From the IMG/VR virus record IMGVR_UViG_3300028048_000043: a stretch of DNA of 64,000 nucleotides, one strand, 5' to 3'. Positions 2,177-35,177 of this stretch are shown in pieces (within the stretch, counting starts at the first letter, position 1; every line of letters begins with the position of its first letter). Both the position numbers and the translations under genes were made by a program. The DNA is from a virus. Lineage: Duplodnaviria; Heunggongvirae; Uroviricota; Caudoviricetes. The notes under the pieces were generated by a model. That model searched no databases and was not told where the DNA came from. It was given only the letters and a program-made list of their open reading frames with translations.

Positions 2177-2766
2177 ATTTTTCTTCGCCGCTCCCGACCC
2201 GCGACTCGAACCGTGACGATCGAAAATAATTGCGCCGCAATTATTTTCCTGTCTACATCATCGTCGCCTGGAAACGAATCCGATTTCTCTACCGAGTTCG
2301 CTAACGCATTTGCTACTGAAATTACTTCGGACGAGAAGTCTGAAGCATGGACAGTAAAATAATTGCGCCGCAATTATTTTTGCATGCATCAACCCGGGCG
2401 GCTCAAGATTTTCATCAGCCTTTTCGACAGCCATTTTCTCGCAAGCACCTGCTGTCAACCACCCGTATCCTCCCTGTATCCCCCAGTCTCCAACAGCCAA
2501 TAATTGCGTGGCAATTATCGCTCGACCCCGTCGTCAGATGGTCATCGAGCGATTTCATTTCACTAATTTATCACATCACGTGGATACTGTACTCCGGATC
2601 GCTCACATCCGGATAATTGCGTGGCAATTATTTGCCTATCCCCCGCCGCGAGCATCTCGTGCGAGCCGTATATCAAGAAAGTTACAACAAATTTCATCAA
2701 ACCTCTTGCTTTATTCAAAACTTTTCGCTATCTTTGTATCAGTTAAAGGAAAAGAAACATCACGTT

Positions 2767-2991
2767 ATGGATTACAAGTTCAAAATAGGCGACATTGTCC
2801 GCTTCAAGGAAGACAAACCCCACAATCTTCTCCCTATGAAGATAAATTCCATAGTGAATCCCGGAGATTGTCTTCCGAACGGAAAGGAAATCAACAATTC
2901 CGGCCAGCCTATTTATATTATGACAGCGCAGAGCGTACATTTCTTCGGAATAGACTTCTATGGTACCGAGAGTTCACTTATGCCAATATAA
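2767..2991 (+). CDS. hypothetical protein, 74 aa (KFKIGDIVRF, possible KOW/SH3-like barrel)
   Basis: Own promoter (2729) and terminator. Confidence 0.8.
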   Translation: MDYKFKIGDIVRFKEDKPHNLLPMKINSIVNPGDCLPNGKEINNSGQPIYIMTAQSVHFFGIDFYGTESSLMPI

Positions 2992-3025
2992 AATCAGGCA
3001 ATATCATCCAATAGTACATTTTTCG

Positions 3026-3061
3026 GAATCCTTCGTTGTGAAACGAGGGGTTTCTTTTTTT
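3026..3061 (+). terminator. intrinsic terminator
   Basis: GAATCCTTCG-ttgtgaaa-CGAGGGGTTTC followed by a T-tract. Confidence 0.8.
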
Positions 3062-3628
3062 GTTGTCCAATGATATTGCTCAGAAGCCTCGCATCTCCTT
3101 GATACAGAAATAATTGCGCGGCAATTATTTGGGGGCTGAGACGTCCATATTTCATTGGACACTGGTGATGTCCGAATACGAGTTCCGTTGATGAAGTCAT
3201 CGTCAATAAGAGTGCCGGTCATCGCCTGCGCGGATAATTGCACGGCAATTATTCAGCCATGGGAGGCAGGAAGGAGATGAGGACTCTGATTCATGTGCGT
3301 TGCCAAAGTGTCAGTCGTGGGATGTCAATCTGGCAGGTGCGTCTGGGGATAATTGCGCGGCAATTATTTCCCTGGTAGACCGTTGGATGAACCTGGGTTA
3401 GCAATCAACTCGTCTCGTGAAGAAGATGATTGGTCTGACGAAATGTATGACGAAGATGTCTGACGCTGCACGAGTGGATAATTGCGCGGCAATTATTTTC
3501 CCATGTGACGGCGCATACCCTGGTTGCGCGGCTGGAGGTTGTATGAAAAAAGTTTGAAGAAATTTTAGTTGGGTATTGTTTATATCAAAATAAAGTGTTA
3601 TATTTGTATCAACAAAAAAGGAAATGCT

Positions 3629-3940
3629 ATGAATGAAAAAGAAATCAAATCGGTATTTGACCGCGTTTTCAACGGATTGCCTAATCCTATGTTCCCCCAC
3701 CCTTATAAGTATTTCGAGCACAAGGGCTATCTCTGCGAGTGCGCGAGTTCGGAATCGGAGTACGAGTGTGCGGAGTATGTGAGGAAAAACCTGCACAAGA
3801 CACCGCTTGCCATTTTCGGAATGGCTTTTGCTGATTGCGGAAAAGCACTTACTGTGCTGACGGCTGACGGGGAACCGACACCTTTCGGTGGCCCTTTCAG
3901 GACGGAACAGGAATTTGAAGCCTTGCTTGCCGAAATATAG
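3629..3940 (+). CDS. hypothetical protein, 103 aa
   Basis: Own promoter (3599) and terminator. Confidence 0.8.
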   Translation: MNEKEIKSVFDRVFNGLPNPMFPHPYKYFEHKGYLCECASSESEYECAEYVRKNLHKTPLAIFGMAFADCGKALTVLTADGEPTPFGGPFRTEQEFEALLAEI

Positions 3941-3968
3941 AATTCTCTCGGTTAGTTTAGTAGTGTTT

Positions 3969-4004
3969 GAAACTCTGTGCCTTATGGTGCGGAGTTTCTT
4001 TTTT
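3969..4004 (+). terminator. intrinsic terminator
   Basis: GAAACTCTG...CGGAGTTTC followed by a T-tract. Confidence 0.8.
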
Positions 4005-4555
4005 GTATTCCGACTATCTTGAGTGTGATGATGCCCGTATCCGCCATCTGCGGAAGTAAAATAATTGCGGGGCAATTATTGATGACGTCTCATCTCAAGT
4101 GCTTCAGAATGAGGCACATAACGGTTGTGATGATTTCATACCCACTGCTGTCGTCGCGATCATGAGTCGAGCGATAATTGCGTGGCAATTATTTCGTTCC
4201 GGAGAGCTGGAAGCGATCCATAGAATTTGGGTTTTGCAAAAATTATTCTTATCGTTGTAACGGAAAGAAACTCGGAGAGAAAGTCGTACTCTGATGTTGG
4301 CCGGGAAAATAATTGCGCCGCAATTATCTGCCGCAGCGCTCAGGAAGGTGAGCCTATTTTAGGCATATGTTCAGGTTGATGATGATTGGCTTGAGACCAA
4401 TGGCGCCTTTAGCCGATTCGGATAATTGCGCCGCAATTATTGATGACACGTGAAGCCCGACGTCTGTGTCGAACGTCATCGTTATAGAAAGAAATCTCTA
4501 TAGAAAATTTTTTATATAGTTTGGAAATTTAAAAACAATTCCCTATCTTTGCATT

Positions 4556-4665
4556 GGATGAAGAACGAAAGTTCTCGCCCCCCCTCATAAGTTGGTGGTT
4601 GGTGTCCATAGCATTTTTCAAGTTTCGTTTGAACCCTGCGCTAAGAGAGCGTGGGGTTCGTTTTT
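4556..4665 (+). ncRNA. candidate small RNA of about 110 nt
   Basis: TATCTTTGCA promoter at 4544, GAAC-GAAA-GTTC hairpin, only a 10-codon ORF, terminator at 4631-4665. Confidence 0.5.
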
Positions 4666-5644
4666 ATATACACGTTGTGCGAAGTATTAGTTCTCCTGGA
4701 GGAGGCGGGGACCACGAGTGAATAATTGCGGAGCAATTATTTTTATAACTGAGTCAGGCTGAGGATGTTAAGTCAGGTGTCTTCAACAAAAGCATTAGAT
4801 GATGACAAGTACTCTACTCATTCTGAAGCACTTGAGATGAGACGTCATCAATAATTGCGGCGCGATTATTTTTTCACGAAGAAGGCAAACCCTGTACTTT
4901 TTGAAGATTTTTGTCTTTTCTTTCACTTTTGTAATCAATTGATAATAATATAGTTACAAGGGAGGTTTTACCAGATTTTGGGCGGTAGCCAGACTCGTCC
5001 GATCTAATAATTGCTCCGCAATTATTTCGGGTGGACGAAGCCCGACTCTGAGGTCGAGTTCATACCGCATCGTATGGTGTCCTCACAGAATTTCTTGAAA
5101 TTTATTTGTATAGTGCAAGAAATTGTCGTATCCTTGTACTGGGAGGAAGTTGAATAATTACGTCGCAATTATTTCCCTGATGGTGAACCGGCTGACGCTG
5201 AGGATAGCAGTCCTCTTTGGCAGGAGTACATCGATGAAGAAAGGGAAGTTCTCCTGGAAGAACAGACATGGTCGATTCGATAATTGCGGGGCAATTATTT
5301 AACGGGCAAGCGTTCGGGACCTTTCTCTTCACATCACATCGCTCAACCTATGCCTGAAATAGGCTCACCTTCGAGCATGGCGATCCAAATAATTGCGCGG
5401 CAATTATTGATGACCGACGTCTGGGACCTGAGCCAGAATTAGGCATATGTTCGGATTGCCCAAACGATTTCCCACTCGTGTGGTATCGACATGGACCGCA
5501 AAATAATTGCGCCGCAATTATTTTCACATGGCAGCGTGCCCAACGATGGTGGACATCAGTGGTAAAATAGTTTCGGTTTTTCTTGTTTATATCAGAATTT
5601 TTTTGTAACTTTGAAAAAGTTAAAGAAATAAAATACAATAAGTT

Positions 5645-5809
5645 ATGACAAAATCAAAGTGCATCGCAAAAGGGTGTCCGTTTTACAAACCTGCGCATTG
5701 GGGATTTTACCACGGACAGCCGAAATACATTGACGCGTGCTGCCGCCAACTCGACATATTCATAAAGAATTTGTCAACTTGTCCGATAGAACCAAAACAA
5801 AAACGATAA
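5645..5809 (+). CDS. small Cys-rich protein, 54 aa (MTKSKCIAKGCPFY...)
   Basis: Not in the ORF track; follows promoter 5606 and precedes the next gene by 4 bp. Confidence 0.6.
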   Translation: MTKSKCIAKGCPFYKPAHWGFYHGQPKYIDACCRQLDIFIKNLSTCPIEPKQKR

Positions 5810-5813
5810 CATT

Positions 5814-6131
5814 ATGGAAACAAAAATTCTCGGTTACAATGATGAAAACCAGCAGACTATTGAAATCCGAATTACGAAAAGCAAGTACCCTTTGCTTTGG
5901 GAACGCAAGGTAAAGGAACTCACCCAGCAGGGATTGAGCGAAAGCGATGCCGAAAGGATACTTGGGGATTGGGTTGTAACGCTTGACCTTTACTACGAAA
6001 TCGGTAGCGGATTGTTCGCAGTTGAAACTGATGCGGTTGAAAGCGGTGCTATCCACTCTCCGTACTCAAACTCCGACATAGTGCCAGCAGATATGCAAGA
6101 CCAAATCCCTTCCGATGCGGTAATCATATAA
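5814..6131 (+). CDS. hypothetical protein, 105 aa
   Basis: ORF followed by a terminator at 6152-6186. Confidence 0.8.
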   Translation: METKILGYNDENQQTIEIRITKSKYPLLWERKVKELTQQGLSESDAERILGDWVVTLDLYYEIGSGLFAVETDAVESGAIHSPYSNSDIVPADMQDQIPSDAVII

Positions 6132-6319
6132 ATTCACGTAGTAGTGCTTTTGAAAATCCTCGCCTTGTGGTGGGGATTTTCTTTTTGACTTGAGTAGAGT
6201 GGCAGTGACTGCCGATCGTGCCATGGCTAAATAATTGCGCGGCAATTATTCCCTGTATCCGGATCGCGTCGTACTTCAGAGTTTTGGATCTGTTTTGTGA
6301 AATAAATACTATGTGAAGT

Positions 6320-6526
6320 TCAATAAAGTATAAAGAAGTCAATAAAGTTTTCAAGCTTACATAATAAATAAAGTCAATAAAAATTTCAAAAAGTTTTGCA
6401 TTAAATAAAGTCAATAAATTCCCCAGAAAATTTTAGAAAGTTTTAAGCTTTTTATTTCAATAAAGTTTTAGAGATTTTTCATTAGTTTATTTTGCAGATT
6501 TAGTCTTCGGAGAAATTCAATAAAGT
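6320..6526. repeat. six TCAATAAA(GT) direct repeats in a very AT-rich non-coding tract
   Basis: Copies at 6320,6339,6374,6411,6457,6517. Confidence 0.75.
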
Positions 6527-6815
6527 TAAAAAATTATAAGCTTACATATTTAAGATACCAGCTTGCTCTCTCCGAGGACGAGTTGGCTTTGCATTTTATT
6601 TTTTAAGCTCAAACATCTTATTGGTACCGAGAGAAGATGATGTCCATCGGAACTGTTCCTTAGTATTGGCGTACAGAAATAATTGCGCGGCAATTATTTT
6701 AGCATGCCTCCGGAACGACGACTCGTGGTCAGCCGAGTACCATAATATGCATAAACAAAATCCCCCACCTAAGTATGGGCGAGGGAAGTTTCGTGGGTTG
6801 AAAGAGAGAGTTGGA

Positions 6816-6983
6816 TTATGATTCGAGTGCAAGCACTACATCGAGTGGTTCTTTCGGATTGAGTGATACGAGGTGGTCGAGGATTTCATCGTAATCTCCA
6901 TAGTGACCTGCCATTAGTCTTCCGTAAAATCCCTGTGACATAGCAAGTGATTTGATTGTGTTGTGGATTTGTTCGCGGTTCAT
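6816..6983 (-). CDS. hypothetical protein, 55 aa (LAMSQGFYGRL)
   Basis: Not in the ORF track; promoter at 7045-7052 and an A-rich start. Confidence 0.75.
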   Translation of the reverse strand: MNREQIHNTIKSLAMSQGFYGRLMAGHYGDYDEILDHLVSLNPKEPLDVVLALES

Positions 6984-7696
6984 TTTTCTATTTCGTTTAT
7001 TGAGTTTGACAATAGCGCTTGTTGTTTTATTCCTTTAACTGATACAAAGGTACAAAATGTTTTTCATATAAACAAGAGGGTTCAGAATTATTTTTTAACT
7101 AATTACAACAATACTGATGATACTGTTGGCCGCGGCGTCCTCCAGTAAATAATTGCGCGGCAATTATTGGATCGACCATGTCCCGATTGACGTCACTCGG
7201 CAGTTGAGTTCAGCAGTCTGCTGTCGCCTCTACATCATCGCCTGCGGGCTGCACAGCACATAATTGCGCCGCAATTATTTGGATCGCCATGATGTCCTGC
7301 GCTGGTTGACCATTGTCGGTGGGCGGATAACAAAAAGAAAAAGGGACACCTTATCGGTATCCCTTTGTGGGCGCGGCAAGCACATAGAAAATTAAGCGCC
7401 CTAATAGTTAAAGAAATAAATCCTGCATAGAAAGCAGGTATAGGTCTATCCTAATTCGGCTACATCTACATATCCTATCTCTCGCGTGACATCTCCGTAG
7501 TATATCCGTAGTTGTTTTTGTCTATAATAAACAATGACAACATACCATATTTATTTCATTCTTCAAGGTAGATAACGCAAACTCTCCGTGAGCTGATGAA
7601 CTCTTTCTGAATTTTTTCAGTCAGTGTAAGCATAGCGTTTCGTTTTTTATCCAATGCAAATATAAGGAAATTTCCTTATATTTCCAAATTATAACT

Positions 7697-7915
7697 CTAA
7701 TATTCCATAATGCCGGAAACATATTCCTCTATGAACTCCCTTACATCAATGTCGTTCGTGAGGTCGCAGTCTTCCCTGTGTATGCAGAAATCATCGTGCC
7801 TGTCTTCGTTCTGGTTGAGGTAAATCTCGCAGTAGTATCCACCTTCGTTTGGATCCACATCTTTTATGGCGTGTACCCACACCTTTGTTCCTCTGCCGGT
7901 AGTTGCTCTAACCAT
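7697..7915 (-). CDS. hypothetical acidic protein, 72 aa
   Basis: Promoter at 7938-7945. Confidence 0.75.
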   Translation of the reverse strand: MVRATTGRGTKVWVHAIKDVDPNEGGYYCEIYLNQNEDRHDDFCIHREDCDLTNDIDVREFIEEYVSGIMEY

Positions 7916-8209
7916 AATGCATTTTCTTTTCTCAAAACAAAGGTAGGAATTATTTCGGAATAAAACAAGGATTTTCTTCAAAATATTTCAAGGAATTTTA
8001 TGAGAAATAATATGAGAAATAATGTCAAAAAATAATCCGAGTTTCTTGAGAAGATCGGCTCCACTGTTCCGGGTGAAATAATTGCGCGGCAATTATTTTG
8101 GCATGCTCGATGGGCCCTCTTGGTTGCCCACCGTATGTCCGAGGTGGAAATAAAAAAGACCACCCCAAGTTTGGGGCAGTCTTCTATCCGTGTTGTGAAA
8201 GTGGTGTTG

Positions 8210-8752
8210 TCAGTCTTCGTTGAAGTAGTTTCCGTAAGGGGTGTCAGGAGTGAGGTCTTTGAACTGCAACTTGCGTACTGGCGGCTGTCCGTCAAAGTAG
8301 GTGTTGTATATTCTAATGGCATCGTCTTCGTTGAGGTCTCCGTCTTCGTACTGGTCGCAGTCTTGATAAAACTCGTTGACAAACTCTGGATTGTTTGCGT
8401 ATTCAGCGCAGAAATCGTTAAGCCCCATACAAGCCCAAGTCAGCTCGATATTCTTGTAGTCGGGGTCTCCCTTGTAAAGATAGCCGAGAATGTGAATGAC
8501 TTTGTTTCCGTTCGGGTCGTAGTAGATTTGATAAAAATCCCCAGTGACGGCTTTCGTGATAGGAGCGTTCGCTTCGTGAACTTCGTAGTTCCACGAAAGT
8601 CCTGCACCTTTAAGGAATCCGTATGCAATACTGCTCGCTTCTTCCTTTGTATCCGCCTTGATGTCAAGGGTTACTGGAACTTCCGTTTCCTTTCCATCGA
8701 TGTGGATTGTCGCTTTTGCGGCAACGATGAATTGTTTGAGTTCTTTTTCCAT
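8210..8752 (-). CDS. hypothetical protein, 180 aa
   Basis: Promoter at 8775; terminator near 8152-8181. Confidence 0.85.
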   Translation of the reverse strand: MEKELKQFIVAAKATIHIDGKETEVPVTLDIKADTKEEASSIAYGFLKGAGLSWNYEVHEANAPITKAVTGDFYQIYYDPNGNKVIHILGYLYKGDPDYKNIELTWACMGLNDFCAEYANNPEFVNEFYQDCDQYEDGDLNEDDAIRIYNTYFDGQPPVRKLQFKDLTPDTPYGNYFNED

Positions 8753-9079
8753 AATGTTATTTCTTTAACTATTACAAAGATAGTGATTTTCAACGAGAAA
8801 AACAAATGTTTCTGATATGAAATTTCATTTATTTGTTGAGGCGATTGCCCACAGATGAGGAGAGTGGCAGCACAGGTAATAATTGCGGCGCAATTATTTT
8901 TATGGCCCATGTCGAGTCCGCCGTCGATCGCTCTGGTGCCTTCGAGTCTCGCACAGGTAATAATTGCCGCGCAATTATTTGCCGCGCCCAGACGCCGTCG
9001 CCTCCTTGCCCAGTGCGGTGGTAAAAAAAAAGGACTGACAAATTGTCAGCCCTTTGTGTCTTGTGTGTCAGTCGCGGTG

Positions 9080-9949
9080 TTAGGCGGCAAAGAGTTTCTG
9101 TGCCTTGCCACGAAGTTTCTCGTAGCATTGCAGTCTTATCTGGCGCACCCTTTCGGCACTGCAACCGATAATCTCCGCTATCTGCTTGTCGTCCCTCTCA
9201 ATCCCGTCAGTCATACCGACCGAGAGTTCAAGGATTTTCCTGTCCCTTTCGGAGAGTGTGGAAAGCAGGCGGTCAAGGTTGTAGGCGGTGCTTTCCCTCT
9301 CTATCTCAATCTCCACCTCGTTCCTGCTTGCGGTCATAACTGCGATTTCTCCGCTTTCCTCAACGGTAGTACCGTCCTCGTCAATCGTGTTGTTGATTGA
9401 AGTGATTTTGTGGGTGCGAACATCCGAGCCAATCTTCGCCACATCCCTTCCGATTTCCGCGTTGATTGCATCCACAATCTCGTCATCGGTCATATACCTG
9501 CCGTTCTCTGCGAAGTATTTGTCCTGCATACGGCTTGCCCTCGCAGAAAGTCTGCAACCGACTTTGTTGCGTACGGTCTGCCCGTTTGCATCGTAGTATT
9601 CGCTGATTTCCTCGCGCATCCAGTGAACGGCATAGGAAAGAAAACGGAAACCCTTTGTGGGGTTGAAGTCCTGCATTGCGCGAATCATACCGATAGCGGC
9701 GCAGGAAATAAGGTCGTCCACATCGTTTCCCCTTGCGAACTTTGATGCAAGAGAATAGATGAAGCGCAGGTTGTGGTTCACGAGAGAATCCTTTGCGCTC
9801 TCGTCTCCCTCGCGCTGATAGCGGTCGATAAGTGCAAGTTCTTCCTCTGCGGAAAGAGTGGTGTACCGCTTTGCTTCCATAAGGAAAGCGTCAGTTGTGC
9901 GTGTGCGTGCCTTGATGCTGGTCTTGCAGACATTGATTGTTCGTGCCAT
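9080..9949 (-). CDS. RNA polymerase sigma-70 family factor (RpoD/sigma-ABfr-like, no region 1.1)
   Basis: Region 1.2 (LSAEEELAL), region 2 (NLRFIYSLA...GMIRAMQDFNPTKGFRFLSYAVHWMR), region 4 (LSERDRKIL...IAEIIGCSAERVRQI). Confidence 0.95.
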   Translation of the reverse strand: MARTINVCKTSIKARTRTTDAFLMEAKRYTTLSAEEELALIDRYQREGDESAKDSLVNHNLRFIYSLASKFARGNDVDDLISCAAIGMIRAMQDFNPTKGFRFLSYAVHWMREEISEYYDANGQTVRNKVGCRLSARASRMQDKYFAENGRYMTDDEIVDAINAEIGRDVAKIGSDVRTHKITSINNTIDEDGTTVEESGEIAVMTASRNEVEIEIERESTAYNLDRLLSTLSERDRKILELSVGMTDGIERDDKQIAEIIGCSAERVRQIRLQCYEKLRGKAQKLFAA

Positions 9950-10308
9950 AGTTGGTAAGTGTTTAGATGTTTTATTGTTTTTTTAACTACTGCAAAGGTA
10001 ATAATAATTTTTGAACTTACAAATATATATACGGATTAAATAACAAATTCTTTCAAAAAATTTTCACTTTTTTATCATTGCCTTGCATACCTTATAATAA
10101 CGAATAGTGTGCCAGTGAGACAAACCTGACAAATTGGCAGACTTGATGATACCCTGATGACCAGCCAAGTCGCGACTCGCATGGCAGAATAATTGCGCCG
10201 CAATTATCTTTACCCGGCTCTGGCGTTTGGATCCATTGGACAGTATATACCGGGAAACAAAAAAGGCTGACATAAAGCCAGCCCTTTCATAATGTGTTCG
10301 GTGTTGTA

Positions 10309-10908
10309 TTATTTTTCGCTGAACAAGTATTCGAGAAGACCTTTCAGGTCTTTTGTTGATAGCAGGGACATATCCCTCCATATAGGCTCTCCGTTGAACT
10401 CGTTATCGCGGTAGATGTGATACCACATTGTTCCGTCTCCCTCAACCTGAAACACCTTATCAACATAAGGGATTTCGAGGCTGCTGAGACCACAGGCTTC
10501 TTCTTCGTAGGACGGAAGTGTGTACTCAATCTCCTTAGGAGTTTCCTCGGAAGTTCCGTTAAGCAGAGCGGAAATCTGATGCCAATACTTTTCGTGTTCG
10601 CAGACATCTTCGTCGAACCAGCAGTCGCACTCGTGGCAGTGCCAATGATATTCATTGTAGCAGTCGTCGTCTCCCATCCATTCGATGTTCTCCGAACCAC
10701 AGTAGGGGCAAACCTTAGGAGTTTCCGGCAACGGCTCGCTTTTGACAAGGTCGCAATCGACGGTAGAGAAATCGTCTCCCCACTCATTCGTCGGAGTTTC
10801 AAGTGCAGTTTCGAGCGCCTTAGTCCTTGCCTCGGCTTCATCCTCAGCATCGACAGTTACCAAAAGTGATAACGGAAGTGTGATAGCAAAAGTGTAATTC
10901 TTTTTCAT
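10309..10908 (-). CDS. hypothetical protein with Zn-ribbon, 199 aa
   Basis: CPYC...CHEC; own promoter and terminator. Confidence 0.85.
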   Translation of the reverse strand: MKKNYTFAITLPLSLLVTVDAEDEAEARTKALETALETPTNEWGDDFSTVDCDLVKSEPLPETPKVCPYCGSENIEWMGDDDCYNEYHWHCHECDCWFDEDVCEHEKYWHQISALLNGTSEETPKEIEYTLPSYEEEACGLSSLEIPYVDKVFQVEGDGTMWYHIYRDNEFNGEPIWRDMSLLSTKDLKGLLEYLFSEK

Positions 10909-11172
10909 AATGTGCTTGCTTTAATTGGTTTCTTTAACTATTGTAAAGATAGTGATTTTCAACGAGAAAACCAAATAATTCGACAAGATTTTCAGCGAAA
11001 ACAGATCTGAAGAAGAGGTACTCTCCGACATTGAAATAATTGCGCCGCAATTATTTTCTGGTGCAGGACTCTCCTCATCTTTCTCTCCGCCTTTGTAAAA
11101 AATATTTGGAAATGAAATTCCTTTTACCTATATTTGCAAACAGAAACACAAATCAAAAAATCTCTTACTACT

Positions 11173-11604
11173 ATGGCTGTCAAAGATGAAATCTTAATCG
11201 TGAAAAGCGAGATGAACTTGAAATCATCGAGTATGAACTTCAAGACTTCGGCTGACGAACTCTATTCAGCTATCGTTGATTTCGTGAAGTACCGCAGGGG
11301 ATATATTAACTTCTGCGGCAATATGGAGCTTGACATCGAGACCGCTATCGGTGTTGACGCGACCAACGGGGTGTTCGAGAATATTATCCGTGCAGTAAAG
11401 GTCGAAGACGGATTACTATCCGTATTCATTGTGCCTATGGAAGACAGGAATGTGGTGTGGTCGAACGAAGACATCGCTTCCGAAGACTACAAGGACTATT
11501 GGTATTCAGTTACCAGAGGTTCTGAGCTTTTCTTCGAGCAGACGCTTTACCACCTTTCATATCTTCTCGAACGCTGGGAAGAATATTGGGTTGAAGAACA
11601 ATAG
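11173..11604 (+). CDS. hypothetical protein, 143 aa
   Basis: Promoter 11129; terminator 11657-11690. Confidence 0.8.
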   Translation: MAVKDEILIVKSEMNLKSSSMNFKTSADELYSAIVDFVKYRRGYINFCGNMELDIETAIGVDATNGVFENIIRAVKVEDGLLSVFIVPMEDRNVVWSNEDIASEDYKDYWYSVTRGSELFFEQTLYHLSYLLERWEEYWVEEQ

Positions 11605-12242
11605 ATGAAATTTCATTTGTAGGTTTCAGAATAGAACAAGGTATCATAATGTCATTAGGGCGTGGCTTCGGCTTCGCCCTTTTGTTTTTTATGGAATTTC
11701 ATTTTGCCGACAAAGAGATCTCATCAAGACACCAGGTATCCGGACGGTAATAATTGCCGCGCAATTATTTTGGATCGCCATCCAGAATCACGACTCTTTC
11801 TCTGGATCCATTTTCGTTTTTGTTTCAGGATTCAAATTCATTTTTAACGAATAATATTTTTGAAAAATTTTTACAAAACTTTTTCTTGTTTTATTTCATA
11901 AAAAATAGTATATTTACATTAGAAACTTTAATAGAAAATGCTATGAGAAAAAGACAATAAATTTTGTTGGGAAAAGCTCGCGAACTATTTTGACACATTC
12001 GTAGAAGTTTAAGGAATATGAAACTTTTCAAGAGAGGAAACATCGAAAGGTGTTTCCTTTTTTGTTGCCCAATGATATTGCTCAGAAGCCTCGCATCTCC
12101 TTGATACAGAAATAATTGCGCCGCAATTATTATTCGTCCGACGCCGTCGATCGCCGGTGGACACAGGTAATGAAATTTCTTCGTGTATGATTTTGAATTG
12201 TCAATATAATTCGCTATATTTGCAATAAGAAAATAAAACACT

Positions 12243-12536
12243 ATGGATAACAAGAAAATCACAGTAAGGGATATGGATAGGTTCAGCCTTACCATTCTCA
12301 AAAACAGAAAGGAAGTAGAGGTACACGGATACCTGCTTAACTATGAACGTGGCGCACAGGCAAAGGAAGACGGATACCACCGCTACGGAATACGTCACAG
12401 CGACTATGACGATTCCTGCCCCTCAACTCTCGAACCCAATGTAACGGTCAACTGGTACGGGGATTTTTTCTGCGAAGAAGAAATTTCTTTCGACGAGATT
12501 GATTGCATCACTATTGTAGATTGGAACTACGAATAA
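12243..12536 (+). CDS. LPD28-like (large polyvalent protein-associated domain) protein
   Basis: YGIRHSDYDDSCPSTLEPNVTVNWYG resembles the LPD28 pattern YxxRHxDxxxxxPxxxExxVxVNxxG (recalled, not searched). Confidence 0.55.
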   Translation: MDNKKITVRDMDRFSLTILKNRKEVEVHGYLLNYERGAQAKEDGYHRYGIRHSDYDDSCPSTLEPNVTVNWYGDFFCEEEISFDEIDCITIVDWNYE

Positions 12537-12786
12537 AATACTACCGCTAATATAACAAGCATTATCCCTCGCCCATTTCGGGTGGGGGATTTTGTTTTAC
12601 CAAACTCGCTGGTCAACCAGACGCCGTCTGAGGCATGCAGAAATAATTGCGCCGCAATTATTTACTGGTGCAGCACTCTCCTCATCCTGCTGAACAGTAT
12701 CACGAGATTTGTTAAAATTTGAACAATTCTTTATTTGGAAGTGTCAAAATAATTTCCTATCTTTGCAATAAGAAAAACGAAAAGTT

Positions 12787-13242
12787 ATGGAACACAATGA
12801 CGACATCATCAGCCTGTTCTCCTGTAATGTAAGGGGAAAGACATCAAAACTCTTTATCATCAACCGCAACCACACCGACGAGATCGTTTATGCGGTGTCT
12901 TGGAACGATGTGGTGGACTATGTAAAATCCCATCCGGGCTATCCTGTCGAAATCAAACCAATCAACGCTACATTCATTCCTCGCAGACTCAATGTTATGG
13001 CGGAAGGAAATGTAGTCAATGTGGTACGCACGGGAGACTACAAGTACGAAGTGGCGGACGATTTCAGCGAAAAGGAAACAGACCAGTACGGCTATACCAT
13101 TCAGCCATACGACTTCGTAAGAGTAAGCGGTTCTGCGGAGACATACGAAATCCAGTTCATCCACAGAGGCAGGCTGTTCCTGCTTGGGAACGACGGAAGC
13201 GAAATCGAAGTTCTACCGTCGCAGGTCTGGAAAGAAATTTAA
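12787..13242 (+). CDS. hypothetical protein, 151 aa
   Basis: Promoter 12758; terminator near 13287-13325. Confidence 0.85.
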   Translation: MEHNDDIISLFSCNVRGKTSKLFIINRNHTDEIVYAVSWNDVVDYVKSHPGYPVEIKPINATFIPRRLNVMAEGNVVNVVRTGDYKYEVADDFSEKETDQYGYTIQPYDFVRVSGSAETYEIQFIHRGRLFLLGNDGSEIEVLPSQVWKEI

Positions 13243-13629
13243 TTCCAATATCCAAACCATTTAACATTTTTTACTTCAATCATTGAAAGTCCCTCAACGG
13301 AAGTTGGGGGATTTTTTTTTTTTCATTCCCGTCGAGGTGAACCCCGTCTTCACCGGAGGCTTGGCGTAACGAAATAATTGCCGCGCAATTATTTGCCGCG
13401 GCCGATCGCACGAACAGTGTGGACAGTTATCCGATTTACGATTTATGAATCGTGAATTTCCTTTGTAACTTATTGAATATAAAGAAATCCCACGATGCAA
13501 GTTTTTGCAATTATATTGAAATTTTATTTCAAAAAATAAAATGAAATTTCTTTGTAAAAAAGTTTGGAATTTAATCAGAAATTTCCTACATTTGCAATAG
13601 GAAAAAGAAACAATAAAACTTTATTTGTT

Positions 13630-14124
13630 ATGGGTTACACACATTACTTCAATTTCAAAAACGACTGCGCGCCGCAGGACATCGACAACGCCTGCTCGAA
13701 ATTCAAGAGAGCCGTCGAACTTTTCAAGGAAGGTCTCAAACTTCAAGGGAATAAACTTCCCTACGAAAGAATCATTTACAACGAAGACTGGACTGTCAAG
13801 GAAAGGGTTCAGGAAAATGCGAACCTTGTTCTTACCGGCGGTGACGGAACAGGCGATCCTACCATTACGGACACCGATGTCATCTTCAACGGAAATCCGT
13901 CCTGTGAGACATTCGCTATCTGCATCGACAAGCCCGGCTGGGATTTCTGCAAGACCAATCGCCGGCCTTACGACTTCGCAGTATGTCTTGCGCTTCTCTG
14001 TTTCAAGGAAGCTTTCGGTGACGACTTCTCTTTCCGTTCAGACGGAGACATCGAGAACGGCGAGGAGGGCTGGGGTCGCGCAAAAGAAATCTTCCGTCTT
14101 CTCTTTGACGACAAGGAGGATTAG
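13630..14124 (+). CDS. conserved-type hypothetical protein, 164 aa (MGYTHYF...FCKTNRRPYD)
   Basis: Promoter 13587. Confidence 0.85.
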   Translation: MGYTHYFNFKNDCAPQDIDNACSKFKRAVELFKEGLKLQGNKLPYERIIYNEDWTVKERVQENANLVLTGGDGTGDPTITDTDVIFNGNPSCETFAICIDKPGWDFCKTNRRPYDFAVCLALLCFKEAFGDDFSFRSDGDIENGEEGWGRAKEIFRLLFDDKED

Positions 14125-14127
14125 GCT

Positions 14128-14403
14128 ATGAAAAAGTTCATTCTCTTAATAGTGGCAACGCTTCTTGTATCATCCTGTTTCTGCGACGGTTTCGGAGATT
14201 TCGGGTACGGATACAATCAGCAACCCGGAACAACGATCAACCAGAGTGTTGACGGAATTTCCCAAAGTGTCGTAACCGACAGCGGCTCAGACATCACGGC
14301 AATCATTTCTATACGGAGAGGAGTTGCCAATGATACGACTGTCGTCAATCCGCCTCAACAAAAGCAACAGTCAGAAAATCCGCCTCACCTAATTCCTATT
14401 TAG
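14128..14403 (+). CDS. putative lipoprotein, 91 aa
   Basis: MKKFILLIVATLLVSSC: signal peptide with lipobox. Confidence 0.65.
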   Translation: MKKFILLIVATLLVSSCFCDGFGDFGYGYNQQPGTTINQSVDGISQSVVTDSGSDITAIISIRRGVANDTTVVNPPQQKQQSENPPHLIPI

Positions 14404-14733
14404 GCTTCGGCTTCCATAGTAGTAGTGTTTCCTTTTTTCGAGACCCTCGGACATGTTCCGGGGGTTTCATTTTTTTTGTTGAACTCGGACTTCCGTCCAC
14501 GACATTCGTCCAGGTGGGCTGCAAAAATAATTGCGCCGCAATTATTTGTTCATGGGTACCCTTCGCTCTTGGCAGGCGCTCTCCTTCTTCGGATTCCGAT
14601 AATTGCGCGGCAATTATTTCCATTCGGGCATCTGACGATGTTCATCATCAACATCCCTCTTTCGGTACCGCGAAATTTCTTTTGGAATTGTCAGACCTTT
14701 TCACTATATTTACATTACAAAGGAAATTTCATT

Positions 14734-14928
14734 ATGGATTACATTAAACATATCAGCAAAAAGACATTTGAAGAAATGTACGGAAAGGTTGAACCTACAA
14801 CTCTTTCCCAGAGACCGATAAATAAGAAGACGGGAAAGCCGTACACGAAAAACTCTATCACCTATTGGCGTTGGTGGCACGGGTTGTCCTTAAACGACAA
14901 GTGTGTACTCGCTGACCTTGAAGCTTAA
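14734..14928 (+). CDS. hypothetical basic protein, 64 aa
   Basis: A-rich start after a promoter-like TATATTTAC. Confidence 0.7.
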   Translation: MDYIKHISKKTFEEMYGKVEPTTLSQRPINKKTGKPYTKNSITYWRWWHGLSLNDKCVLADLEA

Positions 14929-14947
14929 AATAAAAAGAAATTTCAAT

Positions 14948-15181
14948 ATGGCAAAGAACTACACCATACCTAATGTCGGAGACAAAATCCGCATTATCAA
15001 AATGGACGACAGCATCAACGGCGTACCCGGAAAGGACTGGCAGGTTCAAAAGATGAACGGAAATGTATATGAGGTTGAGGCTATCGAGCCTGCGCCGCAC
15101 GACGAAGTGAATATCAAGCTCGTCGGCACTGGTCTCCGTGTAATACCCGGAGTGGACGAATACGAAATCGTCAAGAAGTAA
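14948..15181 (+). CDS. DUF4314-like small beta-barrel protein, 77 aa
   Basis: GDKIRIIKMDD...LRVIPGVDEYEIV pattern; terminator 15206-15238. Confidence 0.55.
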   Translation: MAKNYTIPNVGDKIRIIKMDDSINGVPGKDWQVQKMNGNVYEVEAIEPAPHDEVNIKLVGTGLRVIPGVDEYEIVKK

Positions 15182-21622: not shown

Positions 21623-21640
21623 ATTTGGAAAAGAAAGAAT

Positions 21641-22640: not shown

Positions 22641-22913
22641 CATTTCTCAGTCATAGTTTAATTTCTTGAATTTCCCTTTCCGATTTTTTCGGATTGGGAA
22701 ATTTTTTTGTTTGGTCTGGTTGAGGGATTTGGTTTCCTGGAAGGAGGGTATCAACAGAAAAATAATTGCGCCGCAATTATTTCTGAACGCAGGTCGTGAC
22801 CAATAATCTGGATAATTTCCAAAAAATAAAATGAAATTTCTTTTGTAAAAAAGTTTGGAATTTATTCTGGAATTTCCTATATTTGCAATACAGAAACAAA
22901 AACAGAAATCGTT

Positions 22914-23713: not shown

Positions 23714-24166
23714 TCATATTTTTATGAATAAATATAAAAAATAGGGAGCCGTACTCCCGAATTTACGCTTGTGGACTATCCAACTATGGATGAACCAAAC
23801 AGAAATGTTATGCTAAAAGGTAGCGATAGGTTGAAGCAAGAAATTGAAACTCATAAGTTTTTTATAAGTTTCTTTATACGGTTATCTGCTCGTAACAAAA
23901 AATAAACTAATTTCGGAAACGATGCGGAAATCTCTCTCGATTTTTCGGGAGAGATTTTTTGTTTATGTTCTGGTGTGCAACCCCGACTGCACACCATGCT
24001 TGGCGGATGAAAAATAATTGCGGCGCAATTATTTTAATCTGGAACATCTCGCGTTTGGTTCTGGAAATTTTCCTGAAAAAATAAAATGAAATTTCTTTTG
24101 AGATTTTTTTGGAAAATAAAAATGGATTTCCTATATTTGCAATACAGAAATAAAAAACAAAAGACT

Positions 24167-24944: not shown

Positions 24945-25220
24945 GAACATGACACGGAAGAAGTAAATCTCTCCGCGACATAAAAAAAAATGAAATCTCA
25001 CTTTTTCGGAAGTGGGATTTTATTTTTTTATACTCTCAGGTGGGGAAGGTACCCCCTGGAAGGCGATCCAAATAATTGCGCCGCAATTATTTTTAGACTG
25101 ACATCTCAGGACATTTTCCAGAAAAACTTTATAAAATTTTTTAAGAAATAAAATGAAATTTCTTTTTGGAAAATATCCGGAAATTCCGTATATTTGCACT
25201 GCAAACAAAATCCCAAAGAA

Positions 25221-26136: not shown

Positions 26137-26562
26137 TTATTCGTCTGGATCGTTTCCGTCGCAGAGAGCGAACTTTACGAGAAGTTCATAAACGTTCACC
26201 TTGCTAACGATGTCAAGATCGTATTCGAAATCGAGTTCGATGTATTCGTCTGTGTCAGGATCGGTTTCGGCGACAACGACAACGATGTCTGGATATGTCA
26301 GGTTGTCCTGTTTGGAATAGCATTTCACGTCTGCGACGTTTGCTGCGTGGAGTTCACCATACCGATCGTTCCATTTGACTACTGGATTTTCTTCGAGGGT
26401 TGATACGAAGTCTTCCGGCACGCTTACGATAAGGTGAGGCGGCTCGTCGTTTTCACATTCACCGATGTCACCGTATTCCTGAACGATTAGCGTCACATCC
26501 CTTGCTACGTCCCTTGAAATCTGGTTGAGCTTGTTGTTGTAAACAGTTAAATCGAATTTCAT
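26137..26562 (-). CDS. hypothetical acidic protein, 141 aa
   Basis: ORF with an A-rich start. Confidence 0.8.
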   Translation of the reverse strand: MKFDLTVYNNKLNQISRDVARDVTLIVQEYGDIGECENDEPPHLIVSVPEDFVSTLEENPVVKWNDRYGELHAANVADVKCYSKQDNLTYPDIVVVVAETDPDTDEYIELDFEYDLDIVSKVNVYELLVKFALCDGNDPDE

Positions 26563-26574
26563 AACCGTATAATG

Positions 26575-26751
26575 TTAGTATCTGAAATATCCCGCAGCGG
26601 AACAGAACTCCTTGAAGGAAAGCACGCTGTGCAGACCATTCTCCTTCATCTCGTCCTGATATTTCACATAGTCGTCGTGTGCAGCCTGCATCCTTTCGTA
26701 CATTTTGCTGTTCTCAGGCTTGTTGTTGAAAATAGATTTGCTTTCTTCCAT
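26575..26751 (-). CDS. hypothetical protein, 58 aa (MEESKSIF...)
   Basis: Not in the ORF track; promoter near 26770. Confidence 0.7.
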   Translation of the reverse strand: MEESKSIFNNKPENSKMYERMQAAHDDYVKYQDEMKENGLHSVLSFKEFCSAAGYFRY

Positions 26752-26802
26752 AATGTTCTCTGTTGTAGTGCAAATATAGGAAAAAGAAATTCCATTTCCA
26801 AA

Positions 26803-27396
26803 TTAAAAGTCAATATCCCTTGCATAAATTTTCCCGAACCACCACCAGCGCGGAACATATTCCTCCATTCTGTTTTCAGTCCAGAACGCGGCTTTCTCCC
26901 CTTTCGGTCTTAGCTTGTGAAGTTCGAACCGTTTGAACGATCCGTCGGCATGGTATGCGTACATTGCGAGTACACCGTCTTCGTACCTGAGCATGAAGTC
27001 AACGGTGTCCCTGTGGTTTGCGATTGCCATTACAGCCTTCTGCAAACCTGTCTTTTCATATCCGTAGATGTTCATACCGTCCTTTGCGGTATATCTGATG
27101 TGGAAGTTCTCGCTGTGGAACACAGCCGCCCTTATAGGTTCGTATCCGTCCCAACCGTAAGTGCTGCCGGAAACGAGAACCGAATACACGTTCTTCGTCC
27201 ATTCAAGGTTTGAGAAAAGCAACGCCTTCCTGCTTTCTATCCTGTTCGACTTCCATTTCTCAAACGCCTTAGAATCCTTCCTTCCGTATTTTTCCTTGCG
27301 GCTTCTCTGCTCGATTTTGTATAAGGCGTAGTCTCCTTCGAAGCCGTGTCTTTCCCTTGTGTCAAGTATTGTTAAATCTCTTACTACCTTTGACAT
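26803..27396 (-). CDS. hypothetical protein, 197 aa, paralog of 22914-23432
   Basis: YHADG...F..HKL.PKG motif. Confidence 0.8.
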   Translation of the reverse strand: MSKVVRDLTILDTRERHGFEGDYALYKIEQRSRKEKYGRKDSKAFEKWKSNRIESRKALLFSNLEWTKNVYSVLVSGSTYGWDGYEPIRAAVFHSENFHIRYTAKDGMNIYGYEKTGLQKAVMAIANHRDTVDFMLRYEDGVLAMYAYHADGSFKRFELHKLRPKGEKAAFWTENRMEEYVPRWWWFGKIYARDIDF

Positions 27397-27897
27397 ATAA
27401 CAGATTGTATTATAACGATTTGTAATTCCAAAAATGTTTTGATTTGGAATTTAAGTATTTATCTGTTGCAGAAGTGATCCAGATTTCTTGGTCATCGCGC
27501 CAGGTGCGTCACTGAAATAATTGCGGCGCAATTATTAAAATCACAACATACCGTGATTTCAGGTCAAAACAATGAAAAAATAAAATCCCGTTATGTCTTT
27601 TTCACAACATAATGGGATTTTCAAAAACAAGGAAATTGCAGTCAGCATAGTTCCGAAAAATATAGAATCAACTAAATCTTTCGTTTATAGTTCAACAACT
27701 AATGGGTTAACTACTAAACCCTCTATCCCATGGCTGAATGCGCTTGGGATTGCTTTTCGAAGAATAAGGATGTTTTATTATTTATTTCAAAAATTTCAGT
27801 ACACTTGCAAATAGTGAAAAATTGCAGTTGGCGTAAGAGATACTACTACGCCAACTGCAATTCTGCAACCGTGTCACTGTCCCGGAAAAGGAAGCCC

Positions 27898-30949: not shown

Positions 30950-31252
30950 ATTTATTATTCGTACAATTACCTTGCAAATATACAGAAAAATAAAATATCT
31001 TCAAAGCAAATTGAAAAAATAAACCTCACTTAATTCAAAAAAAATTCCAGTAAATAATCCTGACATTTTTTCATAAACAAACTGACATTTTGTCAGGTGC
31101 GTTTTTTAATAATTGCGGCGCAATTATTTTTTATACCCGAACGGGTACCATTTTACCGAGAGTAATCAATTTTAGACCTGATCGGGTATAAAAAATGAAA
31201 GGGAAATCCTTCACAGGGGTTCCCTTTCGCAGAAACATAAAACAAAATACCA

Positions 31253-31964: not shown

Positions 31965-32044
31965 TGGTGGTCCCGGCAGGGCTTGAACCTGCGACCCACA
32001 GATTATGAGTCTGTCGCTCTGACCAACAACTGAGCTACGGGACC
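31965..32044 (-). tRNA. tRNA-Ile2/Met (anticodon CAT), CCA encoded
   Basis: GGTCCCGTAGCTCAGTTGTTGGTCAGAGCGACAGACTCATAATCTGTGGGTCGCAGGTTCAAGCCCTGCCGGGACCACCA; resembles ileX-type tRNA-Ile(CAU); enlarged D-loop. Confidence 0.85.
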
Positions 32045-33538: not shown

Positions 33539-33799
33539 TTACTCCTGTTCAAGTTCAGTTTCGCATACAAATCCGTAGGCGTTTGCTGAGCAATCGCTGT
33601 TCTCAACGATAAATCCGTTTTCCATTTCGTCGAGAACCGGCTCCCCAGAATACACTTCTTTGAACTTCAACAGGGATTCGGATTTCAGCTCGTCAAGTTT
33701 GTTTAATGCGCTTCTTTTATTCGTTGTTGTCTTATGAACCTCAACCCCGTCTGTTCCGTTAACGTCCCACACGGTTCGTATTACTGTATAAACTTTCAT
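33539..33799 (-). CDS. hypothetical protein, 86 aa
   Basis: In operon. Confidence 0.75.
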   Translation of the reverse strand: MKVYTVIRTVWDVNGTDGVEVHKTTTNKRSALNKLDELKSESLLKFKEVYSGEPVLDEMENGFIVENSDCSANAYGFVCETELEQE

Positions 33800-33808
33800 G
33801 GTAGTCGA

Positions 33809-33976
33809 TCATTTTTCAAACTCGATTATTTCGTCGAAGAACTCTTGAAGTTCATCGTCTGTCATATTATCTTTCGGAAGACTGTAATAGCAATCGTCGT
33901 CCCAAAGAAGTATGGCGCGGTCTTCTACGATTCTGAACTTTTCTCCGTTCGATGCTGTGATGATTCTTTCTTTCAT
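33809..33976 (-). CDS. hypothetical acidic protein, 55 aa
   Basis: Not in the ORF track; fills the operon gap. Confidence 0.65.
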   Translation of the reverse strand: MKERIITASNGEKFRIVEDRAILLWDDDCYYSLPKDNMTDDELQEFFDEIIEFEK

Positions 33977-33988
33977 GGCTTGTGAAAA

Positions 33989-34318
33989 TTAGTCTCCGAT
34001 TTCTTCAAGGATTTCGTCGAAAGCCCAGGACGACAACTGTTCCTTGCAGGCTGCGAGATATGTTGTAAGCAGTTGATCGAGGTACATCTTGCTCAGCCAG
34101 ATTAGCGGAATATGGATGAAATTTTCGCCGCTTTTTCCGACGAGCATGTGATCTGCCGTGATGTCATAAAGAGTGTAATCCTCAGAAAAGGTTTTCTTAT
34201 TGAAAGCTACAATCATACGGTTGTTTTTCAGACTTACCGTAGTCCCTCCGAAGGAGTTGATTTTAGAACGGATCGCTATGATTTTTTCGAGAGACCCAAA
34301 GTTCTTTGCTTGTTCCAT
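33989..34318 (-). CDS. hypothetical protein, 109 aa
   Basis: Promoter near 34346. Confidence 0.8.
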   Translation of the reverse strand: MEQAKNFGSLEKIIAIRSKINSFGGTTVSLKNNRMIVAFNKKTFSEDYTLYDITADHMLVGKSGENFIHIPLIWLSKMYLDQLLTTYLAACKEQLSSWAFDEILEEIGD

Positions 34319-34379
34319 AATGAATTTGTTTTTTGTTTCTGATACAAAGGTAGCGATAAAAATCGAAACTTCCAAATTT

Positions 34380-34889
34380 TTATGAAATTATTTTACCAAC
34401 TTTCGTGTATTCGTTTATCAGATGAAAAAGATTTGAATAGTCAAGGTCAGAAAGTTCCGTACCATATTTGTATGGAGATTCGTCCGGCATCTGTATAGAC
34501 TCCTTATTTCTGCAACGGAAACGACACTCACTGCCTTCGCAGAAAAGCGAAGAACAATACTGAAATTCCGGAGCGTTGTCGAAATCGTGATAAAACAGCT
34601 TCGGGTCAGTCTCTCCGTTTTTCACTTCAAGGTATCCCTTAGTTTTATAGAATAGTATCCCTACGCTTCCAGCGTTAAAGATACGTACTTTTTTGCTGTT
34701 CCTTCCTGAACGGACTGGTCTGTTTACATATACGGCGATCCCAGGAATTGTCATAGCGTTTTTATATGTAACGCTGATAACATCCGGAAACGCCTTCTTT
34801 GCGAGAGACAGGACATGCTTTTTGATGTTCTTTATTTCTTCCTCAGTGAAAGGAACATACTCTGTTGTGACGTGATTCGGATATTTCAT
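34380..34889 (-). CDS. hypothetical protein, 169 aa
   Basis: Promoter near 34915. Confidence 0.85.
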   Translation of the reverse strand: MKYPNHVTTEYVPFTEEEIKNIKKHVLSLAKKAFPDVISVTYKNAMTIPGIAVYVNRPVRSGRNSKKVRIFNAGSVGILFYKTKGYLEVKNGETDPKLFYHDFDNAPEFQYCSSLFCEGSECRFRCRNKESIQMPDESPYKYGTELSDLDYSNLFHLINEYTKVGKIIS

Positions 34890-34994
34890 AATCTTTTGTT
34901 TTCTGTTTCCGATGCAAAGATAGGAAAAATAATTTTAACTTCCAAAAAATAAAGAAACAAAATGATAAAAAATATGTAACTAATTGATAATCAA

Positions 34995-35035
34995 CCTGAG
35001 CTATCATATAATAGAATATTATATGATAGCTCAGG
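34995..35035. repeat. perfect 19-bp-arm inverted repeat with a 3-bp spacer
   Basis: CCTGAGCTATCATATAATA-GAA-TATTATATGATAGCTCAGG. Confidence 0.9.
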
Positions 35036-35177
35036 CGTGAGTGATCTGGTAATGATGCAGAAAAAATAATTGCGCCGCAATTATTTTGAACACACGTTCA
35101 TCCCAACTCTGCGGTTAAAAATAAATTTGGAAATTGAAAAATTTATCCCTATCTTTACATTGATAATGTGTATAGAT

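Follow-up and report, generated by a model that had tools for sequence, protein, structure and literature searches.

Large phages of the gut and rumen carry long stretches of small, family-less genes with a fast turnover, and how such stretches are organised and exchanged is a puzzle. The question is posed in a concrete form by a 64,000-nucleotide stretch of a tailed phage genome (Caudoviricetes; IMG/VR record IMGVR_UViG_3300028048_000043), hereafter the window, meaning that whole stretch at its full length, in which a 19-bp palindrome occurs 47 times between positions 2226 and 35084: what does a site repeated in this manner do among such genes? The region displays a clear grammar of promoter module, gene, terminator, 58 bp and invariant palindrome, and natural variants show the palindrome as a seam. 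The interpretation to which we give roughly even credence is that the palindrome is a docking site for a putative symmetric dimeric DNA-binding protein at the borders of gene cassettes, acting on promoters from afar, and that it serves secondarily as a recombination seam.

A confined palindrome between terminators and promoters

The palindrome was searched for as ATAATTGC-N3-GCAATTAT, and the chance level was taken from 100 dinucleotide-preserving shuffles of the window. There are 44 exact matches in the window as against none in the 100 shuffles, and three copies with a single mismatch (4851, 5154 and 20225) bring the total to the 47 that had been counted in a preceding sequence-only reading of this DNA, all of them within 2226-35084; the two matches with three mismatches (30963 and 35402) are both at chance level. 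The full palindrome is absent from the other 31 kb of the window and from 19 kb of flanking genome, and its 8-mer half-site, present 92 times in the block, occurs once in the former and once in the latter. Hence, the motif is not equally common in these neighbouring regions; equal abundance in the rest of the genome was part of what that reading had named as fatal to its proposal.

The consensus of the 19-bp palindrome is ATAATTGCG-S-CGCAATTAT, with 8-bp arms around a 3-bp centre. The centre triplet is GCC or GGC in 24 of the 47 sites, which makes the site a perfect 9+1+9 palindrome, GCG or CGC in 13, and different again in the remaining 10; adjacent sites share a centre in 12 of 46 cases, which is not above chance (p = 0.09). 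The palindromes are usually bordered by A/T tracts, and 15-45 bp beyond these, on both sides, the DNA reaches 58-60% GC, as compared with 40% in the genome and about 30% in other intergenic DNA. G or C is strongly favoured, symmetrically, at outward positions 9-10 of the site. This symmetric bias, a weak signal in itself, together with the GC-rich flanks suggests a footprint wider than 19 bp. Neighbours are spaced 72 to 3957 bp apart, and the sites thin out across the block: there are 19 in 3.3 kb at its left end but only one per 4 kb at its right end.

The relation of the sites to genes was assessed with the gene calls attached to the source contig, which covered 2226-26800 and 44 of the sites. 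All 44 are intergenic though 52.5% of this stretch codes (P about 6e-15), in agreement with the prior statement that no copy lies inside a credible gene. The edge of the palindrome is found 50-65 bp past the stem of a strong intrinsic terminator (57.6 +/- 4.5, n = 18) and the palindrome 75-162 bp ahead of a TAnnTTTG -7 box (105 +/- 20, n = 22), whichever strand the next unit takes. The example offered earlier for this succession also holds: a terminator at 15204-15234 is followed after 54 bp by the site (15288-15306), and this after a further 125 bp by the -7 box at 15431. The repeating unit can accordingly be described as a site, a GC-rich segment of 45 bp, an AT-rich promoter module, a leader, one to three small genes, a terminator, about 50 bp, and the next site. 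The promoters of the block are of the Bacteroidota type (TTTG ... TAnnTTTG), and each unit has its own. Promoter/leader modules recur before unrelated genes, with sharp borders at the start codon, and these modules and the palindrome are the sole sequences common to the otherwise unrelated cassettes. At the left end the sites form four runs (of 4, 4, 4 and 7 copies) in which they are 109-156 bp apart, with only three genes among the four runs. Repeats internal to the window are made up of the site together with one of its flanks and stop at the far edge of the site, as seen in 3046-3129 with 12048-12131, in 4058-4113 with the inverted 4817-4872, and in 16938-16985 with the inverted 18104-18152.

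Divergence and junctions among related phages

A strain of about 97% identity, represented by a 7.1-kb contig (L301) from run X4, has 12 sites in common with the window. Not one of the 228 positions of these sites differs, while divergence amounts to 4.2% in the +/-45-bp flanks, 1.75% in other intergenic DNA and 2.8% in coding sequence; had the 192 arm positions diverged as fast as the flanks, eight of them should have changed. Relatives at 87% identity, a figure that refers to the cassette of a 105-aa gene, are represented by contigs L293-L300 from several rumen samples. A single one-base variant, GCAATTTT, recurs in L293 and L295, and all their other arms are kept. Their centres, on the other hand, are TTG, CGG or TGA rather than G/C-only, their A/T tracts are often absent and their flanks are unalignable. 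The invariance of the arms amid varying flanks and centres indicates that the sequence is read, rather than the shape of a hairpin. No compensatory changes between the arms were seen in these relatives, and the three variant copies in the window break the pairing. On the whole, this is a site of one lineage, strongly constrained in sequence, which fits recognition by a symmetric sequence-specific protein. The high GC content and the high divergence of the flanks would also fit GC-biased repair around a recombination hot spot, although this is speculation.

The gene order of the block region differs among relatives, and several differences between relatives are bounded by the palindrome. Junctions were collected from assembled contigs of related strains mapped to positions 2000-21999 and from further contigs, and the resulting list is a lower bound. 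In an X4 contig 4173 is joined directly to 6231, giving a deletion of 2057 bp whose ends are the first bases of two sites; the same run shows an additional 71-bp unit (a site plus 52 bp) at site 11036, and a contig that passes through site 14527 and continues into the right flank of site 35066 (14547->35087). In X5 a replacement of the sequence begins with the base that immediately follows site 5389 (5408), and in an X7 contig site 7149 is joined to the right flank of 8078 (7168->8098), a junction supported by only 8 letters at the contig end. L295 is without 111 bp that lie between two adjacent sites of L293, the 19-mer itself being the overlap. Between the window and the 87% relatives, homology extends from the start codon through the gene, its terminator and the left flank and ends at site 6231 (at 6255 against L293), beyond which the two carry different cassettes. 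Other differences lie away from the sites, namely a 55-bp replacement at 3156-3212, a 269-bp skip at 6760-7030 and a 71-bp deletion in L297 within a 54-aa open reading frame (ORF). Apparent junctions at promoter modules (16091/16127 and 18311) were set aside as cross-mapping of paralogous modules rather than recombinants.

The sites can be followed across the block from its left border, where a 450-bp AT-rich gene-free stretch precedes a C-rich tract at 2100-2215 (CCCC runs, with G-runs on the minus strand) that lies directly before the first palindrome. The first run (2226, 2359, 2500 and 2613; 2226-2631) stands ahead of the promoter of the gene 2767-2991. The second (3110, 3234, 3349 and 3478; 3110-3496) begins 56 bp past the terminator 3025-3054 and ends 103 bp before a -7 box, and the third (4061, 4174, 4309 and 4422; 4061-4440) contains, in 4174, the left end of the X4 deletion. 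The fourth run (4722, 4851, 5007, 5154, 5280, 5389 and 5503; 4722-5521) includes two of the one-mismatch copies, 4851 and 5154, and the X5 replacement begins at the edge of 5389. A 54-aa cysteine-rich ORF at 5645-5809 (CxxxxC ... CC ... C), which is kept in the 87% relatives, precedes the 105-aa cargo gene. Site 6231-6249, 50 bp past the terminator 6152-6181, is both the right end of the X4 deletion and the point at which homology with the 87% relatives stops.

Several of the sites that follow are associated with units on the minus strand. Site 6679-6697 lies 64 bp beyond the minus-strand terminator 6761-6786; the pair 7149 and 7260 (7149-7278) has its first member 97 bp upstream of the minus-strand -7 box of the gene 6816-6983; and 8078-8096 lies between minus-strand units, 58 bp beyond the terminator 8154-8185. 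Two palindromes 81 bp apart (8879 and 8960; 8879-8978) are situated between the gene 8210-8752 and a sigma-factor gene on the minus strand (9080-9949), which has its own site upstream at 10189-10207. This gene is one of two sigma-70 family genes with regions 2 and 4 in the window, the other being at 46623-47519. The next sites are 11036-11054, between divergent units, where X4 has its extra 71-bp unit; 11750-11768; and 12112-12130, which together with its left flank is the repeat of 3046-3129 noted above, identity stopping at the site edge.

Further to the right, single sites behind terminators predominate: 12643-12661 (53 bp past 12564-12590), 13374-13392 (58 bp past 13285-13316), 16008-16026 (65 bp past 15909-15943), 16965-16983 (63 bp past 16873-16902), 18106-18124 (54 bp past 18021-18052), the one-mismatch copy 20225-20243 (55 bp past 20141-20170), 21300-21318 (55 bp past 21212-21245) and 24014-24032 (55 bp past 23926-23959). 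Among these are interspersed two palindromes 72 bp apart (14527 and 14599; 14527-14617), the left flank of the former being the one joined in X4 to the right flank of 35066, and sites placed by their distance ahead of a -7 box, namely 19357-19375 (99 bp), 22762-22780 (98 bp) and 25072-25090 (99 bp). Site 27517-27535 is upstream of a minus-strand operon (26137-27396), 31109-31127 is 127 bp upstream of a minus-strand -7 box, and the last palindrome, 35066-35084, forms the right border of the block between divergent promoters. Between these promoters there is also a perfect 19+3+19 inverted repeat (34995-35035), followed by four AAAGTATCATATATTATAGTTT-like direct repeats (35178, 35219, 35285 and 35345); the repeats of 34995-35374 look, from their sequence, like a second and different operator set. 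One tRNA gene (31968-32044) falls within the block and six more lie at 50068-50636 and 62329-62589.

The window is identical, in reverse, to part of a 313,587-bp metagenomic contig (ENA ERZ27252073 k141_717600), in which the block occupies about 77-110 kb, and public runs containing the stretch come from bovine, sheep and goat gut samples. Genes for DNA polymerase B, a helicase, an RNA ligase, the second sigma factor, tRNAs and an IS605-type OrfB lie in the right half of the window. These sources, the Bacteroidota-type promoters and this set of genes mark the virus as a jumbo phage of a rumen Bacteroidota host. Within the replication module, the IS605 OrfB/TnpB (Cas12f-like) gene (56432-57670) has the helicase gene on one side and the RNA ligase gene on the other; its locus has no sequence in common with the palindrome and no guide or target link to it, and no cas families turned up in our scans. 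Contigs from an RNA run (X2) span gene bodies, for example 9060-9954, 16142-16843 and 18298-19272, and are without cover over the arrays at 2000-2666 and 4001-5334, contig gaps not being counted as evidence.

Docking of a protein, recombination and other readings

The reading that we favour takes the invariant arms to demand a reader of sequence, and the 9+1+9 dyad to point to a dimer; such a dyad is the classic format of operators for helix-turn-helix (HTH) dimers, as in tetO and the lambda operators. A putative dimer would bind the operator-like 19-bp palindrome on double-stranded DNA, and the palindrome would mark the borders of the self-contained cassettes that make up a hyperplastic accessory region. 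The bound protein might silence or insulate cassettes by acting on neighbouring promoters at a distance, much as KorB does from distal OB operators, looping repressors being comparable. Cassettes would be added, deleted, duplicated and exchanged by recombination at the palindromes and at the reused promoter/leader modules, since these are the only sequences that unrelated cassettes have in common, and most simply this would be general recombination by the phage on 19-25 bp of identity, as has been proposed for the promoter-early stem-loop (PeSL) elements of other phages.

Several observations weigh against this reading. In the minus-strand block of 26-35 kb, where there are only three sites, promoter modules occur with no palindrome nearby, which indicates that the site is not required for promoter function. 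A simple repressor or activator does not usually sit as far as about 110 bp upstream of the start site, and a plain operator model leaves the gene-free arrays of 4-7 sites and the GC-rich flanks unexplained. In more distant relatives that were found through a sigma factor of only 50-54% identity (L159 and L162), small genes stand in comparable rows but no palindrome is repeated among them, implying that the element is dispensable for this kind of phage. Finally, the search for a binder or recombinase, which covered 83 kb of the genome (the 64-kb window and 19 kb of flank), recovered no HTH, ParB or recombinase protein other than the two sigma factors and the IS605 OrfB/TnpB. Comparison of about 60 proteins with PHROGs and Pfam, and of a 312-aa border protein with Atlas, yielded no binder candidate; 20 larger block proteins had no confident PHROG match, and the only block proteins with a confident PHROG or Pfam family are the sigma-70 factor, a DUF3293 protein and an LPD28 protein. 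The remark in the sequence-only reading that neither recombinase nor cognate binder could be identified in the window thus extends to the larger region, and of its inference of a dimeric-protein binding site the part that stands is the fit between arm invariance and a sequence-reading dimer, no binder having been found in the 83 kb.

The foremost competitor, which we judge unlikely, is dedicated site-specific recombination of an integron-like kind, in which a putative recombinase of the phage or the host excises, inserts or inverts cassettes at the palindrome, with the 7-bp GC-rich centre (GC-SSS-GC) as overlap region and the AT-rich arms as binding sites. Tyrosine-recombinase core sites have a layout akin to such 6-7-bp arms around a 7-bp centre. 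The at least seven independent junctions that fall exactly at sites, the fixed distance of the site behind the 3' end of each cassette, reminiscent of attC, and the gain or loss of "empty" 71-156-bp units between sites would all be natural outcomes of such an enzyme. Likewise, the commonest centre is lineage-specific (G/C-only here, TTG in the 87% relatives), which a need for partner sites to match would predict. In a 329-kb relative (ENA ERZ27257207, seen through its gene table only) a 381-aa tyrosine integrase (Arm-DNA-bind_5, Phage_integrase) adjoins the homologous region at its border, 5.4 kb upstream of the 105-aa cassette gene and beside two gene-free gaps of 1.3-1.5 kb, which may be site arrays. 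If all this held, a large lytic Bacteroidota phage would possess its own integron-like platform, the palindrome being the core site of a putative recombinase, and co-infecting phages would trade ready-to-express early or anti-defence genes, a scenario that we likewise regard as doubtful.

However, no recombinase was found in the 83 kb, and in particular no IntI-type tyrosine recombinase either beside the array or elsewhere in it; the near-perfect symmetry gives the site no direction; the centres are mixed within one genome; the cassettes have their own promoters; and the sites show no attC-like extended pairing. Furthermore, a conserved sequence that separates unrelated cassettes is bound to show up as a breakpoint. 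Junctions at sites are thus no proof of a dedicated recombinase, and general recombination on short identities suffices to account for the reuse of promoter/leader modules with sharp borders at start codons, with no need of a special enzyme. The earlier option of a recombination site for shuffling cassettes is therefore sustained insofar as gene content changes exactly at the sites; these changes lend no particular support to a dedicated recombinase, as short-homology recombination explains the junctions equally well.

An improbable alternative is a parS- or NBS-like loading scaffold that coats, protects, positions or gates the region, for instance as first-entering DNA, and has no part in promoter regulation. 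It could draw on the density gradient from left to right, on the existence of gene-free arrays, and on the resemblance of G/C-centred, AT-armed palindromes to sites of the ParB family such as KorB OB (PMC11790492). Yet no ParB-family gene was found in the 83 kb, and the recurrence of one site per unit at a fixed distance from the terminator links the element with transcription units. The notion of first-injected DNA, put forward in the sequence-only reading, finds no support in the location of the block in the interior of the 313.6-kb contig, where nothing marks a physical end.

Still less probable is a role at the RNA level, in which the palindrome would back up termination weakly in both directions, or would form a hairpin that serves the processing or stability of read-through transcripts. 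The succession of A-tract, 8-11-bp stem and T-tract does have the shape of a bidirectional terminator, and the site is always downstream of the 3' end of a gene. As an RNA hairpin, however, the palindrome attains only -6.5 to -9.3 kcal/mol (z -1.0 to -2.7) and stands behind far stronger terminators (-11 to -22); its A/T tracts are often absent in the 87% relatives; its arms are invariant and show no covariation; and gene-free series of 4-7 copies are senseless for termination. An intrinsic terminator was rejected on the grounds of the weak hairpin, the lack of T-tracts in relatives and the presence of the real terminators upstream. The spacers of the arrays were also considered as small RNAs and discarded, since ten of them fold no better than shuffles (z -1.8 to +1.4) and belong to no Rfam family, Rfam finding only 7 tRNAs in the window. 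These results bear out two earlier assertions, namely that the element acts as DNA rather than RNA, as the invariant arms without compensatory changes, the weak hairpin and the true terminators upstream attest, and that it is neither CRISPR, nor attC, nor a terminator, given its irregular spacing, the lack of flank pairing and, again, the weak hairpin.

The least probable of the alternatives, selfish REP/MITE-like elements spread by a transposase (such as an HUH Y1 enzyme) that recognises a hairpin in single-stranded DNA, is disfavoured despite the high copy number, the extragenic and lineage-specific distribution, the occurrence both singly and in BIME-like clusters, the variation of small site-plus-flank units between strains and the IS605-family OrfB/TnpB gene in the window, for the palindrome has no GTAG/CGTC tag, the 83 kb contain no Y1_Tnp, the TnpB locus has no sequence in common with the site, the unconserved flanks leave no element body, and confinement to 33 kb and the fixed 58-bp terminator distance misfit transposition.

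Mimicry of a host operator was also considered and rejected, as scans of genomes, metagenomes and viral contigs gave, among the matches listed, almost only single chance matches. Five Bacteroidales genomes gave near-matches, most of which belong either to a coding repeat (...DSRDNCNAII...) or to an unrelated element; those of L302-L306, L309 and L311 (Bacteroidales G001, G003 and G004) correspond to a coding motif that recurs, ...YDSRDNCNAIIE..., and that probably comes from surface proteins with leucine-rich repeats, and are not regulatory sites. By chance the 19-mer also lies within perfect tandem repeats in a Clostridia metagenome-assembled genome and a Paenibacillus genome (L171 565-931, in 116-bp units, and L210 3041-3303, in units of about 81 bp), which bear no relation to the phage element; the multi-copy loci L023, L151, L202 and L238 were left out. 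Homologues of a 103-aa cargo gene were pursued as a lead and abandoned, for they lie in an unrelated phage with different intergenic hairpins. In this 58-kb phage, which has integrases (L283, 9161-19037), homologues of both the 103-aa cargo gene and the LPD28 gene are found, and the small genes are parted by spacers of a regular 56-64 bp. The GC-rich hairpin in these spacers, with its GAAC-type loop, differs from one spacer to the next, while the leader, AACCCAATCAAAATCA..ATG, is shared.

Whichever protein may read the site, a 25-mer that contains it could be used as bait for a binding protein, and the palindrome offers a simple way of delimiting and comparing accessory cassettes in uncultivated Bacteroidota phages. 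If the binder were indeed a recombinase or a ParB-like silencer, phages would have a mechanism not described before for exchanging cassettes or for controlling their early genes globally.

Comparison with known systems

Like the attC sites of integrons, the palindrome stands behind the 3' end of each cassette, and the cassette arrays differ between relatives. The attC sites are imperfect palindromes of 57-141 bp whose folded single strands are what is recognised; an IntI integrase lies beside them, and their cassettes are promoterless. By contrast, the present element is a perfect 19-mer with no extended pairing, its cassettes have their own promoter and terminator, and no integrase was seen in the 83 kb. 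A long attC-like hairpin is ruled out by the absence of mirrored complementarity between the flanks (0.27, as against 0.27 in controls).

In plasmid RK2 many OB palindromes, at distances from 45 bp to over 1 kb ahead of promoters, mediate distal silencing by the ParB-family clamp KorB (PMC11790492). Both systems repeat a short palindrome, G/C-centred and with AT-rich arms, many times upstream of promoters. They differ in the number of sites and in the link to terminators, and no ParB-family protein was found in the 83 kb; the likeness would be an analogy of mechanism only. The stoperators of Cluster A mycobacteriophages, dozens of copies of a repressor site in short intergenic gaps (discussed in PMC4351075), offer a similar parallel in the multiplicity of one site in intergenic gaps, but they are asymmetric 13-mers oriented with transcription in temperate phages, unlike the symmetric sites behind terminators found here.

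A closer counterpart is the 17-bp repeat TGTTCGG-N3-CCGAACA of Cluster O mycobacteriophages, present in more than 30 copies per genome and denser in the non-structural arm, which is lineage-specific, absent from the host and of unassigned function, and whose predicted binder is a dimer (Cresawn et al. 2015, PMC4351075). Both have invariant inverted arms of 7-8 bp, a variable 3-bp centre, more than 30 copies and a restriction to one lineage. Nevertheless, the Cluster O sites are spread genome-wide, with a third of them inside genes, most not near promoters and few if any at rearrangement borders, whereas the palindromes of the present phage all lie between genes, keep to 33 kb, are linked in position to terminators and promoters, and occur at junctions.

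In organisation, the region recalls the PeSL motifs of T4-like phages, which lie between small ORFan genes in hyperplastic regions; there, indels and replacements between close relatives are bounded by the motifs, gene-free motif clusters occur, and the motifs have been proposed as points of recombination, homologous or site-specific (Arbiol et al. 2010, PMC2839356; Comeau et al. 2014, PMC4122927). The palindromes likewise occur between small family-less genes, bound several changes in gene content and form gene-free clusters. In PeSL, however, the stem-loop is the terminator itself, abuts the promoter and varies in stem sequence, whereas here the palindrome is separate from both, following the terminator by 58 bp and preceding the promoter by about 100 bp; its arms are invariant and its flanks GC-rich, and the phage is not T4-like and has promoters of the Bacteroidota type. 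The label of a candidate new system that had been attached to the array is therefore too strong, as the PeSL cassettes and the Cluster O repeats are close precedents for it.

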